DNA of 35,542 bases, taken from IMG/VR virus record IMGVR_UViG_2667528074_000007; one strand, given 5' to 3'. The position numbers were made by a program, and so were the translations under genes. The notes below the pieces were generated by a model. It saw only the letters and a program-made list of their open reading frames with translations, was not told the origin of the DNA and did not search any database. The DNA is from a virus. Taxonomy: Duplodnaviria; Heunggongvirae; Uroviricota; Caudoviricetes. Below are positions 20,677 to 34,174 of the stretch, piece by piece (the first letter of the stretch is position 1; every line of letters starts with the position of its first letter).

Positions 20677-21960
20677 ATGACAGCAGAAATAGCCGTATTT
20701 AACAAGACCGCAGTAGCTTTAGCCGCAGATTCAGCTGTAACAATTTCTGGAGGCGGCAAACATAAAATCTATAATGGCGCTGAAAAGCTTTTCGCTCTAA
20801 CTAAACATCATCCTGTAGGTTTGATGGTATATGGAACTGGTGATCTCTGCACAGCTCCATGGGAGCTTATCATCAAGGCTTATAGAAAGGATTTAGGCTC
20901 TAAATGTTTTGACTCTTTGGAGGAATATGCTGAGGATTTCTTCAATTATCTACAGTCGGCTAAATCAATCATCACACCAGGTATGCGTGAGGCTCATCTT
21001 TATCACTTCCTGAGCGAGATTGTATTCAGCATGCTTGTTGATGCTTTTTCTGAAGGTCTCGAACCAACATATTTCGTTAACTTCAATAAGAATCAATTTA
21101 TTACAGACCTTACAAATTATTGCAACGATCTCCTTACAAAATTATCTGATATTAATTACTTTGATGGTTTTACTCCGGATGATGAACAAGCAGCCCAAAC
21201 CTATGCTTCATCAGTTGCCCAACGCATCATTGCTCAAAAGTTTAGTGACTTTGATCCAATATCCATAACTCCACAGTTGACAAGAGTAGTTAGTGATGTT
21301 TTGGCAGCTATGATATGCAAGCAAAGTGATATCGGTTCCGTCTCTGGGATTGTAATTGCAGGTTATGGCGATAAAGACTATTACCCTAAAGTATTATCAT
21401 ATGAAGTTTGTGGCTTCTTTAATGATAAAATCAGGAAAACTACAGATGCTGACAAGTGCTGCATCACTCCTAATTGCGGCGTGACTCCTTTTGCGCAAGA
21501 GGATGAAGTTTCTGCTTTCATGCAAGGAGCTAGTTCACATCTTATCCAAAATCTTCATGCTGAGTATCAACGTTCTATCGTCGATTTACTTGATGGTATT
21601 GATTCAGTAATCACAGATTTGGTGCCTACTTCAGATATCGAAGGAGCTAAGGATGCTATAGTTGATGTAGTGCGCAGAACTGTTTCCGATTGCAAGGGGC
21701 GTATTGATAGCTTTGTCCGAGAAAACTATGTTGACAAAGTCGTAAATATGATCGAGTTTTTACCCAAGCAAGATTTAGCTTATATGGCTGAATCATTAGT
21801 AAATTTAACCGCTTTCAAGCGCAAGGTCTCCGATGATACTGAAACAGTGGGAGGCCCCATAGATGTTGCAATCATTTCTAAAGCTGATGGTTTTATCTGG
21901 GTTAAACGTAAGCACTATTTTGCAAAAGAACTGAACCATCACTACTTTTCGCGGCCATAG
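20677..21960 (+). CDS. Hypothetical 427-aa protein, possible HslV/proteasome-like Ntn-hydrolase fold; accessory gene between Q and the lysis cassette
   Basis: Only long plus-strand ORF in a minus-strand late region; AT-rich. N-terminus MTAEIAVFNKTAVALAADSAVTISGGGKHK...VGLMVYGTGD parallels HslV [22 protein letters not shown]...AGFAGGTAD as recalled; later GIVIAGYGD and VGGPIDVAIISKADGFIWV resemble C-terminal strands of that fold. No search run. Confidence 0.7.
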   Translation: MTAEIAVFNKTAVALAADSAVTISGGGKHKIYNGAEKLFALTKHHPVGLMVYGTGDLCTAPWELIIKAYRKDLGSKCFDSLEEYAEDFFNYLQSAKSIITPGMREAHLYHFLSEIVFSMLVDAFSEGLEPTYFVNFNKNQFITDLTNYCNDLLTKLSDINYFDGFTPDDEQAAQTYASSVAQRIIAQKFSDFDPISITPQLTRVVSDVLAAMICKQSDIGSVSGIVIAGYGDKDYYPKVLSYEVCGFFNDKIRKTTDADKCCITPNCGVTPFAQEDEVSAFMQGASSHLIQNLHAEYQRSIVDLLDGIDSVITDLVPTSDIEGAKDAIVDVVRRTVSDCKGRIDSFVRENYVDKVVNMIEFLPKQDLAYMAESLVNLTAFKRKVSDDTETVGGPIDVAIISKADGFIWVKRKHYFAKELNHHYFSRP

Positions 21961-21983
21961 CAACAAATAGACAAGGGGAACAC

Positions 21984-22133
21984 ATGTCACTTAAGCAAGC
22001 CTATGAAAGAACTCAACCCAAAAGCATCAATGATTTCTTTCAGTTGAGTACTTCTGGAAAGAGTCGACGCACTGTAACAAGCCAATCCAACTTCTTTACT
22101 AAATTGAACAAAACATTACCTGCACAATCCTAA
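21984..22133 (+). CDS. Small ORF (49 aa) immediately downstream of the 427-aa gene
   Basis: ATG at 21984 preceded by AAGGGGA about 7 nt upstream; translates MSLKQAYERTQPKSINDFFQLSTSGKSRRTVTSQSNFFTKLNKTLPAQS; stop abuts the terminator stem. Below the ORF-track cutoff. Confidence 0.3.
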   Translation: MSLKQAYERTQPKSINDFFQLSTSGKSRRTVTSQSNFFTKLNKTLPAQS

Positions 22134-22168
22134 AAAGTTAAAAGCCACTACGGTGGCTTTTAACTTTT
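22133..22168. terminator. Bidirectional terminator hairpin between the accessory cassette and Q
   Basis: Perfect 16-bp inverted repeat AAAAGTTAAAAGCCAC-TACG-GTGGCTTTTAACTTTT; the Q stop codon (22167..22169) lies inside the right arm. Confidence 0.6.
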
Positions 22169-22532
22169 ATTTACATGCCATAACGCTCGTAATCCCCTCT
22201 ACAAAACCAATTGCAGTTTGCAATTCCTTTCTAATCGTGCCATCTGAACACCTTCTCTTCTTGGCAATAGTGCGTAATGAGATACCAATAACAAAGTGAG
22301 CTATGATGAGCTCATATTCCTCTGGTTTATACTTTCGCAACCGAGCCACACAACCGTCTATTATGATGCCCTCATCATCATCGCACTGAATCCGGGACTT
22401 TCTGCCATGAGGTAAAAGCCCCTTGAAGCCTGCTGCTATAGGTTGCCAATCCACACTACTGTTATCTGCTGCAGCCCATGCTCCCCAGCGGTCCAATACT
22501 TCATACATATCACGCATCAACCTTCTCCACAA
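22167..22532 (-). CDS. Putative late antiterminator Q
   Basis: 121-aa ORF at the Q position of a lambdoid map, after DUF968 and before the lysis region; C-terminal part looks HTH-like. Family assignment is from memory. Confidence 0.55.
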   Translation of the reverse strand: MWRRLMRDMYEVLDRWGAWAAADNSSVDWQPIAAGFKGLLPHGRKSRIQCDDDEGIIIDGCVARLRKYKPEEYELIIAHFVIGISLRTIAKKRRCSDGTIRKELQTAIGFVEGITSVMACK

Positions 22533-28373: not shown

Positions 28374-29048
28374 ATGAAAACAATCCATGACATCCGGCGG
28401 TCTAACGCCAGAAAACTGAGAGATGGTGTTGGCGGGAATTCTTCCTTTGCCACTATGATTGATCGCGAGCCAACCCAGACCAGCAGGTTTATGGGAGATG
28501 GTGCTACTAAAAATATCGGTGACAGCATGGCACGACACATCGAAAAATGTTTCGACCTGCCTGTCGGATGGCTCGATCAAGAACACCAGACAACGAACAT
28601 CACAAAAAAACCTGATGTTTCAATCACTAATAAACAAATCACATTAGTCCCTGTCATATCATGGGTACAGGCCGGAGCATGGAAAGAAGTTGGATATTCT
28701 GAGGTTGATTTGAGCACAGCAGAAACGTATCCCTGCCCTGTACCCTGTGGGGAAATGACTTATATCTTGCGGGTGATAGGTGATTCAATGATTGATGAGT
28801 ACCGCCCGGGAGACATGATTTTTGTCGATCCTGAAGTACCTGCCTGCCACGGTGACGACGTTATTGCATTGATGCACGATACAGGCGAAACCACCTTCAA
28901 AAGGTTGATAGAAGATGGGACACAGCGTTATCTCAAAGCGTTAAACCCAAACTGGCCTGAGCCTTACATTAAGATCAACGGTAATTGCTCTATAATTGGT
29001 ACAGTGATTTTCTCAGGAAAACCAAGAAGATACAAAATCAAAGCCTAA
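28374..29048 (+). CDS. cI: CI-type prophage repressor (HTH plus S24 LexA-like autopeptidase domain)
   Basis: 224-aa ORF divergent from cro; N-terminal HTH region and C-terminal VIGDSMIDEYRPGDMIFVDPE with downstream Lys, typical of S24 Ser-Lys dyad repressors. Confidence 0.85.
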   Translation: MKTIHDIRRSNARKLRDGVGGNSSFATMIDREPTQTSRFMGDGATKNIGDSMARHIEKCFDLPVGWLDQEHQTTNITKKPDVSITNKQITLVPVISWVQAGAWKEVGYSEVDLSTAETYPCPVPCGEMTYILRVIGDSMIDEYRPGDMIFVDPEVPACHGDDVIALMHDTGETTFKRLIEDGTQRYLKALNPNWPEPYIKINGNCSIIGTVIFSGKPRRYKIKA

Positions 29049-29060
29049 TCAATGTTTATG

Positions 29061-29083
29061 AACCTGCTTCGGCAGGTTTTTTT
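29061..29083 (+). terminator. Rho-independent terminator after cI
   Basis: AACCTGC-TTCG-GCAGGTT followed by TTTTTTAT, 13 nt after the cI stop. Confidence 0.55.
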
Positions 29084-29087
29084 ATAC

Positions 29088-29115
29088 TTGACAATGTACC
29101 TTTTAGATACATAAT
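29088..29115 (+). promoter_or_regulatory. pL-like early promoter with operator-like TGTAC motifs
   Basis: TTGACA (29088..29093), 16-bp spacer, CATAAT (29110..29115); spacer contains the imperfect palindrome ATGTACCTTTTAGATACAT (29094..29112), and a second TGTAC lies at 29115..29119. Confidence 0.45.
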
Positions 29116-29241
29116 GTACCCAAGCGAAACAACGAACAGGCAGGACGCCCACGAAGTAGCCGCCTGGGGCATATGAAGTCCAGGATGATTCGTTGAGTCA
29201 TGTTGTGCCACTATGCACTCATGTTAAAGCAGGTGTATGAA

Positions 29242-29517
29242 ATGAAAGTCCAGATTTTAAACAATAACTGTGAAGTCGTTTGGTCATACGACATAGCCGC
29301 CCCTGTAGATCAGAGCGGCGATAGCTGGACCAATGGGAAACATCAGATTATGGCTGGAGTTGTGTTCTCTTTACGCCGTGCTTTGGAACAGGCTGAAGTA
29401 TTTCCATCAGACCCTGAATGGAAATGGCCTTTTTCTATTTGTCCAAATTCGGAGAGCACATTTCAGAAAATTGGTCAGAAAGTCGCACTCGAAGAGCATC
29501 AGCCAACTGTTTCCTGA
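29242..29517 (+). CDS. Hypothetical first gene of the leftward (pL-like) operon
   Basis: Start moved to internal ATG at 29242 (MKVQILNNNCEVVW...) with AGGTG 7 nt upstream; ORF track begins at 29200. Confidence 0.4.
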   Translation: MKVQILNNNCEVVWSYDIAAPVDQSGDSWTNGKHQIMAGVVFSLRRALEQAEVFPSDPEWKWPFSICPNSESTFQKIGQKVALEEHQPTVS

Positions 29518-29680
29518 TTTTTTCAGGTAACTCGTCGGCATCGCAGAAACAACAACGCTCGATCATGTTGAAAGCCGATTCGTAGAACTGTTTCTGCTGA
29601 GTGTCGCTGAGACAGGAAAAGAGCGACGTTACGATGATTTTATTAATTGCATTATCAAGTTCTTTTTCATCAAAAGTCAT
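29435..29680 (-). CDS. Hypothetical small protein, convergent with and overlapping the 29242..29517 gene
   Basis: 81-aa ORF with AAGGA 8 nt upstream of its ATG; AT-rich; contains CCFCDADE. Confidence 0.4.
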   Translation of the reverse strand: MTFDEKELDNAINKIIVTSLFSCLSDTQQKQFYESAFNMIERCCFCDADELPEKIRKQLADALRVRLSDQFSEMCSPNLDK

Positions 29681-30119
29681 TTGATTTTCCTTTTATGTAT
29701 ACGGGCTTAAAAGGATACCACCGAGCCTGAAGTGGTGAAAAGACAGGCACATAACAGCTAAGTATTTTCAACCAAAGAGAATCCTTAGCGTTGTGGTGAA
29801 TGCGGCTCAGCGCACGCGGGTTAAGGTTGAGGCTGACAGTCGACCTTCTGTGGATACCCACCCGTCTGGTGTGCAACCTTCGCCAGGCACCGGGAGGCAC
29901 CCGGCACCACAACTTTATGCTGTGTGTAGTCCTGGCGGTACCAGTTTGTACCCTTGCTTCCGGCTGGTACCCCGTCCTTTTTACAAAACAGAGAAGAGCA
30001 TCACCGGACGACGGGCTCATAACCCAATCCATCCGGGCGGCTGCTACCGCAGGTGTTCTTCTCTGTTTTGTGGAGAAACTAATCGGCCTTGCAGGGTCGA
30101 TATGATGAGGAGCAGCAAA

Positions 30120-34098: not shown

Positions 34099-34174
34099 TG
34101 GTGCCGATAATAGGAGTCGAACCTACGACCTTCGCATTACGAATGCGCTGCTCTACCAACTGAGCTATATCGGC
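34099..34174 (-). tRNA. thrW: tRNA-Thr (anticodon CGU)
   Basis: Reverse complement reads GCCGATATAGCTCAGTTGGTAGAGCAGCGCATTCGTAATGCGAAGGTCGTAGGTTCGACTCCTATTATCGGCACCA: 76 nt, cloverleaf with CGT anticodon and encoded CCA. Confidence 0.9.

Follow-up and report, generated by a model that had tools for sequence, protein, structure and literature searches.

What is the function, and what the nature, of the stretch of about 440 bp that precedes yfdP in an SfV-like lambdoid prophage? The stretch occupies positions 29681-30119 of a virus record of 35,542 nucleotides (IMGVR_UViG_2667528074_000007), the whole of which is called the window here. A first-pass annotation had described it as a GC-rich, highly structured, non-coding leader in the early-left operon, with a put-like antitermination element, a processed small RNA (sRNA) or a regulated terminator as candidate functions. 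The stretch is a real non-coding, strongly folded RNA leader heading the early operon of the prophage. Its conserved element is a pseudoknotted domain of 124 nt (29790-29913) which, by sequence and structure comparison, is a diverged, uncatalogued member of the STnc100/PasD superfamily of phage sRNAs.

Composition and folding agreed with the initial description. GC content was 0.55-0.60 over 29750-30050, compared to 0.36-0.47 in the flanks, and the + strand folded at -174 kcal/mol (z = -5.70), a value equalled by none of 100 shuffles; z was -3.15 for the - strand. The nested inverted repeats were all recovered in the sequence and by a repeat finder, in place or a few bases away. ACAAAACAGAGAAGA (29983-29997) pairs with TCTTCTCTGTTTTGT (30057-30071), in arms that reach 25 nt (29983-30007 / 30047-30071), GGTACCAG (29937-29944) pairs with CTGGTACC (29964-29971) and is then followed by TTTTT at 29978-29982, and CCGGG (29890-29894) pairs with CCCGG (29900-29904). 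A perfect long-range pair of 9 nt, GTTGTGGTG (29790-29798) with CACCACAAC (29905-29913), had been missed; it closes the 124-nt domain. The 25-bp hairpin and the GGTACCAG hairpin, on which the initial description had put the emphasis, are not where the information lies. The domain itself had been touched on only through its CCGGG/CCCGG pairs, its relationship to STnc100/PasD unrecognised.

No convincing open reading frame (ORF) was found, and it is very improbable that the leader encodes a protein, be it from the + strand ORFs of 101 or 229 aa or from the minus-strand ORF of 120 aa. Open frames exist, and PGAP lists a pseudogene at 29793-30105, called only as a 'frameshifted' 'hypothetical protein'. 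The PHROG matches of the leader ORFs are fragments, however, of 14-37 residues from five unrelated PHROGs on both strands, and a Pfam search of the same ORFs gave no match. A 2-nt indel relative to SfV falls inside the supposed leader ORF, several 1-nt indels separate the leader from that of ST64B, and conservation tracks base pairing instead of reading frame. Both the non-coding status and the place on the early-left operon were supported.

In an Rfam/Infernal scan at E up to 10, the only credible match was STnc100 (RF02076), at 29792-29911 with 33.7 bits (E = 2e-5; model positions 31-147 of 206), below the cut-off of 47 bits; at the gathering threshold nothing in the leader was matched. Canonical STnc100 copies score about 80 bits. 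The last 22 positions of the Rfam STnc100 alignment are identical in the window, as is the 20-nt 3' motif CCGGGAGGCACCCGGCACCA. Shared with STnc100 and PasD are helix P1 (UGGUG/CACCA), the GAAU junction, the P2 hairpin, stem B and P5 (CCGGG-AGGCA-CCCGG) joined to the P1 3' strand, as well as the layout of domain, linker and an intrinsic terminator soon after the domain (29933-29974, U tract 29978-29982 in the window) and the hosts, temperate enterobacterial phages. The window copy differs in its P2 (GCGGCUCAGCGCACGC versus CCCCC-UNNGCGG-GGGG), in an extra upstream helix, P0, and in its location in the early-left (pL) leader, while canonical copies lie in the late region downstream of Q. It also has no promoter of its own, where canonical copies have TTGACN-17-TAANNT immediately upstream. 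The window sequence was part of the seed of our covariance model R1, so its own R1 score proves nothing; in the 35.5 kb of the window, R1 found this single copy and none in the pR operon.

STnc100 and PasD are prophage-encoded, Hfq-associated sRNAs of Salmonella and pathogenic E. coli. Canonical STnc100-type RNAs, stand-alone transcripts of about 160-210 nt, are constitutively expressed in EDL933 lysogens, and a northern blot confirmed one of them (PMC5331693). PasD, an abundant sRNA that is bound by Hfq and has RIL-seq targets, is held to have a common ancestor with STnc100; the preprint on Pas RNAs that links the two mentions no pseudoknot (bioRxiv 10.64898/2026.05.13.724894).

Rather than one single leader, the region is a series of modules carried by the pL transcript. 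Module boundaries were taken from alignment with ST64B, Salmonella phage 118970_sal3 (sal3), Citrobacter phiNP, Cronobacter phiES15 and further viral contigs. From 5' to 3' the features are:

29725-29755, + strand: hairpin GCCTG (29725-29729)...CAGGC (29744-29748), then ACATAAC (from the sequence)
29757-29789, + strand: helix P0, GCTAAGTATTTTC / GAGAATCCTTAGC, with a 7-nt loop, abutting P1 (repeat finder, predicted fold)
29790-29913, + strand: STnc100-superfamily domain of 124 nt, pseudoknotted and multi-helix (Rfam match, covariation)
29790-29798 / 29905-29913, + strand: P1, perfect, 9 bp, closing the domain
about 29801-29817, + strand: P2 hairpin, after the GAAT junction
29823-29829 / 29874-29880, + strand: pseudoknot AAGGTTG / CAACCTT (covariation)
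29864-29871 / 29881-29888, + strand: stem B, its loop holding the pseudoknot 3' strand
29890-29904, + strand: P5, CCGGG-AGGCA-CCCGG, joined directly to the P1 3' strand
29918-29931, + strand: conserved box TGCTGTGTGTAGTC, 14 nt, predicted single-stranded, between domain and terminator
29933-29982, + strand: intrinsic terminator; hairpin 29933-29974 with core GGTACCAG / CTGGTACC, 19-nt loop, -17.8 kcal/mol
29983-30071, + strand: long hairpin, stem of about 25 bp (29983-30007 / 30047-30071), branched apex (repeat finder, fold)
30084-30099, + strand: small hairpin, at the same position with a different sequence in ST64B, sal3 and phiNP
30107-30112, + strand: Shine-Dalgarno sequence GAGGAG of yfdP (from the sequence)
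30120, + strand: ATG of yfdP (PGAP annotation)

Relatives of the domain were collected from IMG/VR with the 3' motif GGGAGGCACCCGGCACCA, which gave at least 120 loci and more than 90 distinct phage copies, and with the 5' motif GTTGTGGTGAATGCG, which gave at least about 100 more loci. The 15-base pattern TGAATGCGGCN{1,3}AGCGC returned nearly all chance matches in genome contigs, with one true copy (Citrobacter, L196). The copies have a common plan of P1, GAAU, P2, a variable insert, 'GCG', stem B, and P5 joined to the P1 3' strand. The loop of stem B pairs with the bases right after P2, forming an H-type pseudoknot, the strands of which differ between lineages:

Window: AAGGTTG / CAACCTT
phiES15: AAGGCTG / CAGCCTT
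L016: AGACTGACAAA / TTTGTCAGTCT
L319: TGGTTAA / TTAACCA
L256: TGGTTAT / ATAACCA
Canonical copies: CCAGTC / GACTGG; ATCAGCA / TGCTGAT; GCCAGGTC / GACCTGGC

Covariation across about 100 phage copies was found for P0, stem B and the pseudoknot. Because MAFFT set lineages out of register at stem B and the pseudoknot, these two were assessed with alignment-free tests of cognate against non-cognate strands, and P1, P2 and P5 were counted with a formal covariation tool. A Watson-Crick run of at least five was present in 59% of cognate loop/upstream pairs versus 12% of non-cognate pairs, and the family contained 24 different duplexes for the pseudoknot and 50 for stem B. For P0, at least 10 of 13 Watson-Crick pairs were formed in 72 of 100 non-redundant copies, compared to none of 100 shuffled controls, with 47 distinct duplexes. 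The outer pairs of P1 covary (GC to AU). P5 was invariant in the collected set, which is a consequence of how the sequences were collected; in the mEp460 subtype, which was not collected via P5, its place is taken by CCGG-AGAUCAGCA-CCGG.

Three subtypes were distinguished by P2 and its surroundings, the last two without an Rfam family at the gathering threshold:

Canonical: P2 CCCCC...GGGG; Rfam score of about 80 bits
Window type: P2 GCGGCUCAGCGCACGC; preceded by P0
mEp460 type: P2 GCGCA-GGCUGA-UGCGC, with a larger P5 loop; size from 69 to about 200 nt; preceded by P0

The genomic contexts follow these subtypes. In annotated phages, window-type and mEp460-type copies lie between cI/pL and the first early-left gene and have no promoter of their own; the order cI, pL, domain, terminator, early genes holds in seven of them (SfV, ST64B, sal3, phiES15, phiNP, mEp460 and a Stx2k phage). 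Canonical copies lie downstream of Q and upstream of the lysis genes, with a strong promoter ending about 7 nt before P1 and terminators after the domain (L098, HK639). In HK639 (L354), the phage used to define put-like antiterminators, a canonical STnc100 domain of 84 bits is located at 44811-44923, between Q and a holin gene and flanked by four annotated terminators. This arrangement suggests that canonical STnc100 RNAs are late-promoter (pR'-tR') leader transcripts, which fits the constitutive RNAs of about 160-210 nt in EDL933 lysogens. A tie to one Q family was considered and rejected, since what lies upstream of canonical copies varies and comprises several unrelated Q types, a methylase and Stx A. 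Other family domains have the orientation of genuine tRNA genes (Ser, Thr, Arg, Met, Tyr) that lie about 10-110 nt away in phage tRNA arrays (L327, 5016-5241; L252; L256; L268). Sequences like the window leader occur in 2785 of 5426 complete E. coli genomes, and relatives were also found in phages of Shigella, Salmonella, Cronobacter, Citrobacter and Klebsiella.

Within the prophage, the leader belongs to the transcript of the early-left promoter. Over 29681-30119 the window matches an E. coli chromosome at 100% and phage SfV at 99.3%, and the annotation of both gives the gene order cro (ymfT, - strand), operators, cI (ymfK), terminator, yfdP, yfdQ, yfdR, xis, int. The features around the leader are:

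28374-29048, + strand: cI (ymfK) (annotation)
29060-29079, + strand: terminator of cI (ymfK) (promoter/terminator scan)
29088-29115, + strand: pL promoter, near-consensus TTGACA-16-CATAAT (promoter scan)
29094-29112 and 29114-29132: operator copies overlapping pL, resembling the OR copies (28289, 28339) (pattern search)
Downstream of the leader, all + strand: yfdP, yfdQ, yfdR, xis, int (annotation)

The operator pattern had five matches, where 1.1 were expected. The operon runs rightward (+) in window coordinates, 'leftward' being lambda convention only. pL is the probable source of the transcript that carries the leader, which would begin about 560 nt and end about 1000 nt from the putative transcription start. 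In between are two overlapping convergent ORFs, 29221-29517 (+, orf33) and 29435-29680 (-, 81 aa), each with a full-length PHROG match (phrog_3195 and phrog_3311) and neither homologous to ymfI or ymfJ of e14. The few variable sites favour orf33, five out of five falling at its third codon position, and both PGAP and the SfV authors annotate orf33 without the minus-strand ORF. The 81-aa 'gene' that was taken as the boundary of the region is therefore itself doubtful and unproven and, as orf33 is favoured over it, the untranslated stretch may span 29518 to 30119.

Further observations were made on the prophage. A gene for a Q-like antitermination protein is annotated at 21757-22509 (-), and no STnc100-family domain is present between it and the holin genes, so that in the window phage the family is confined to the early-left operon. 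A tRNA gene (34102-34174, -; 71.8 bits) lies just past int and is presumably the attachment site; in the E. coli record with the 100% match, a SecB-like gene is found at these coordinates, which indicates integration at a different site there. The CPS-53 prophage of E. coli K-12 (L355, 9248-9604) has retained yfdP-yfdT and lost the entire structured leader; no more than about 25 nt ahead of the yfdP start are common with the window, the remainder being a repetitive GACGGGTCAGATTTTGA-like tract.

The modules around the domain were compared among relatives. Upstream, Klebsiella phages that are otherwise unrelated share 29712-29757 at about 95% identity (phage BLAST), and the motif GCCTG-GAAAGA-CAGGC-ACACAAC also stands ahead of P0 in L309 and L324. 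This part may be the 3' remnant, with a P5-like hairpin and a P1-3'-like strand, of a degenerate upstream repeat unit. Tandem units were seen in L319, L320, L268 and L343. In L016, L060, L071 and L092 a miniature domain (GGTGGATAAGCCGGGCATCATCCCGGCACC: short P1 plus P5-like hairpin) lies about 100-150 nt upstream of the full unit and about 100 nt past a pL-like promoter with a palindromic operator (TTACCATAATGGTAA). A possible leader ORF of 9 codons (ATG GAG CCG CGA CAA AGT GTG ...; MEPRQSV..) directly precedes P0 in mEp460-type and L016-type leaders (L248, 2300-2330; L016, minus strand) and is absent from the window. The P0 strands of the window, GCUAAGUAUUUUC/GAGAAUCCUUAGC, correspond to the consensus GGUAAGAGCAUUG...CAGUGCUCUUUCC. 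A possible extension of P0 by 6 bp would pair CATAAC (29750-29755) with GTTGTG (29790-29795), and in relatives the base of P0 is extendable by CACAAC/GUUGUG. Since the extension takes up the 5' strand of P1, extended P0 and P1 would compete.

Downstream of the domain, the box TGCTGTGTGTAGTC is invariant or nearly so in the window, ST64B, sal3, phiNP and phiES15, although the neighbouring terminator stems differ. It is also found in L016, L060 and L071, and in L350 it adjoins a different domain subtype. It is a candidate seed or protein-binding site. The GGTACCAG/CTGGTACC hairpin with its T run, noted earlier as an inverted repeat, is a true intrinsic terminator by its fold and its conserved position. 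A hairpin with a U tract is present at the same place, with other stem sequences, in ST64B/sal3, phiNP, phiES15, L016, L071, L092 and L350; the stem sequence changes in almost every lineage:

Window and phiNP: GGCGGTACCAG.../...CTGGTACC
ST64B: GTCGGCGTC.../...GACGCCGAC
phiES15 and L016: GCCCGC.../...GCGGGC
L092: GGCGGCACC.../...GGTGCCGC

The 19-nt loop, the spacer of 3 nt (TCC) before TTTTT (29978-29982) and the presence of only five U suggest that the terminator of the window is leaky. At 29970-29973 the window reads CTGGTACCCCGTCC, while SfV and most viral contigs read CTGGTACCGTCC. This difference, a 2-nt insertion in the window, widens the spacer between stem and U tract and may weaken termination in this prophage.

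The hairpin of about 25 bp was found only in phages with yfdP as first downstream gene. It is 94-95% identical in mEp460, cdtI and Stx2 phages, with one compensatory change (G-C to A-U) in ST64B and two mismatches in phiNP. By analogy it is a candidate site for RNase III or mRNA processing.

The best reading of the locus, held tentatively and at somewhat less than an even chance, is that of an STnc100-like RNA driven by pL and ended by the terminator, with partial read-through into yfdP-int. Judged from the sequence, P0, domain, box and terminator (29757-29982) are one RNA unit with the architecture of STnc100/PasD: a structured 5' domain, a single-stranded linker, and a terminator with U tail. 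Upon loss of the repressor, transcription from pL would cross orf33 and a fraction of the polymerases would stop at 29982, releasing a stable STnc100-like RNA directly or after 5' trimming. In this RNA the folded domain would be a stabilising or partner-binding handle and the box TGCTGTGTGTAGTC an interaction site, presumably acting in trans by Hfq-type pairing. The other polymerases would pass the weak terminator into the long hairpin and yfdP-yfdQ-yfdR-xis-int. An sRNA is favoured because the plan of domain, linker and terminator matches that of Hfq-bound sRNA relatives, because the linker box is constant across genera while the terminator stem drifts, as is usual for a seed followed by a terminator, and because the canonical fold does not block termination in lysogens. 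Several points weigh against an sRNA, and the Rfam score below the cut-off is one of them. No sigma-70-like site was found in 29681-29790 (+), nor a conserved -10 box among relatives; with no adjoining promoter, the RNA would have to be cut from a pL transcript of about 860 nt. The pseudoknotted core is elaborate and invariant, which would be uncommon in a simple sRNA that acts by Hfq-dependent base pairing, and it points to a specific partner that the model leaves unnamed. mEp460 and L092 lack the box, and in L196 and L320 there is no terminator and the domain runs directly into a ribosome-binding site. A terminator-like site within 100 nt downstream was present for 60 of 95 family copies and 91 of 600 random windows, but the detector had been relaxed to admit the 3-nt spacer of the window and is lenient, 15% of random windows scoring within this distance. 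Of the three functions first proposed, the put-like element was not supported in the sense of membership of the put family, and both the processed sRNA and the regulated terminator are still live.

Control in cis, the second of these, is the main rival, possible but on the whole unlikely. Here the domain, alone or with host factors, would modify the polymerase or the nascent RNA to pass 29933-29982 and later terminators, or would tune termination, a role equal in an N-less phage to that of nut/N in lambda or put in HK022. In all seven annotated phages the domain is on the sense strand, just before the positionally conserved terminator at the head of the early-left operon, while the downstream genes differ (yfdP in most, Kil/Gam in phiES15). 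The earlier remark that no N-like antiterminator is evident was upheld, as a scan of all ORFs for arginine-rich motifs gave only out-of-frame artefacts, and the ORFs that separate pL from the domain bear no relation to one another from phage to phage. The canonical branch occupies the other site where lambdoid phages overcome terminators, between Q and the lysis genes and right after a strong promoter, and the competition of P0 and P1 for GTTGTG makes a structural switch possible. In lysogens, nevertheless, canonical copies give short terminated RNAs that accumulate, which means that the fold does not act there as an antiterminator by itself. Moreover, the window has one copy, the pR operon being without any, the domain is not followed by a terminator in some relatives, and the element is unlike put: HK639, whose put-type system is proven, has the family in its late region only. 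A boxA/nut element was rejected as well: UGCUCUUU, upstream of P1 in relatives, equals the core of the rrn boxA but is the 3' strand of P0, with its 47 covarying duplexes, and is degenerate in the window, which has AUCCUUAG. In a wider form, the module of P0 and pseudoknot would be an unrecognised class of phage cis-regulatory RNA. In N-less lambdoid phages it would govern the stopping of polymerase at operon-proximal terminators (tL here, tR' for canonical copies), via RNA-based antitermination or a protein- or ligand-responsive P0/P1 switch, with STnc100 and PasD as terminated by-products. We consider this doubtful, although worth bearing in mind.

Two further explanations bear on the fold itself. 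In the first, the domain would mimic a tRNA or serve as a tRNA-like signal for processing; RNase P, RNase E or another factor that handles tRNAs would recognise it, and it would punctuate the polycistronic RNA or act as a decoy. The stack of P1 (8-9 bp) on P5 (5 bp) looks like an acceptor/T-arm minihelix with P2 at the place of the D arm, the order of helices is cloverleaf-like with P5 directly joined to the P1 3' strand, and T-arm-like motifs (GGTTCGANTCC) are present in the P0 loops of some relatives. RNase P matures RNAs of the phages P1, P7 and P4, and the domains in the tRNA arrays of L327, L252 and L256 have the orientation of their neighbours. Neither ARAGORN nor the Rfam tRNA model called a tRNA, however, the P5 loop has 5 nt where a T loop has 7, a single-stranded NCCA tail is lacking and the window copy adjoins no tRNA genes, which makes this explanation improbable. 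Still less probable is a riboswitch-like sensor, in which the pseudoknotted core would bind a small molecule or ion, shift the balance between P0-extended and P1 forms and so set termination at 29982, coupling early-left (in canonical copies, late) expression to host physiology. The invariant junction and loop nucleotides among variable peripheral helices, the pseudoknot, the mutually exclusive P0 and P1 and the location directly after promoters and directly before terminators would all suit a sensor. Yet no known riboswitch class was matched at E up to 10, the P1 3' strand does not clearly overlap the terminator stem, conservation of stems such as P5 as sequence is atypical, and no association with gene function points to a ligand.

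The family was already known, but as far as could be checked the pseudoknot, P0, the two uncatalogued subtypes, the arrays and the early-operon context had not been described. To a known sRNA family are thus added a covariation-supported pseudoknot, an upstream helix, tandem arrays, a neighbourhood of tRNA genes and an early-operon context; two of its three subtypes are not caught by Rfam. The long-known, functionless STnc100/PasD RNAs are suggested to be leader transcripts of phage late operons. Control of termination by the fold would account for early-left expression, including that of xis and int, in SfV/ST64B-type phages without N or put, and such a cis-regulatory class would be present in about half of the complete E. 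coli genomes. If it acts in trans, it would be an early phage sRNA with a seed conserved across genera.

The put RNAs of HK022 and HK639 are processive antiterminators made of RNA alone, with an activity that depends on the beta' zinc-binding domain. Like them, the element is a structured RNA that lies ahead of terminators in an early operon of lambdoid phages without N, and an analogy of function is possible. Homology was rejected after comparison with putL and putR of HK022 and the annotated putL of HK639, which are a different RNA; R1, searched in both phages, had no match in the early region of HK022. The annotated putL of HK639 is HK022-like and unlike the window domain, and HK639 has both a put RNA and an STnc100-family RNA, in different places. 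The put RNA is about 70 nt with two side-by-side stems (PMC9378689), in contrast to the closed multi-helix pseudoknot of 124 nt. put is adjacent to pL and copies are expected after both pL and pR, whereas the single element of the window is about 670 nt from pL. The pL-proximal leader (29122-29200) and HK022 putL have only CGAAC and CAGGATGA in common, spaced alike (about 46 versus 50 nt); the predicted fold of this leader differs from put and is not significant (z = -1.4), and the likeness is probably due to chance, a degenerate put-like element being less likely.

In lambda, the nutL-N leader carries an RNase III hairpin and pR'-tR' gives the '6S' leader RNA. Unlike the lambda nut region, the window has no sequence-conserved boxA/boxB and no ORF for an arginine-rich N protein in the operon, and to our knowledge the lambda leaders hold no conserved pseudoknotted domain. 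A long untranslated leader after the early promoter is common to both, and the long duplex (29983-30071) before the ribosome-binding site of the first gene is comparable with the RNase III site of the N leader. Canonical STnc100 copies, for their part, occupy the pR'-tR' position as a short terminated RNA, as does lambda 6S. CpxQ and SroC are sRNAs that share a terminator with an mRNA, being derived from a 3'UTR or a leader. We know of no large conserved tertiary fold in sRNAs of that type, but the proposed unit would resemble them in sharing pL and terminator with the orf33 message and in being matured from that message.

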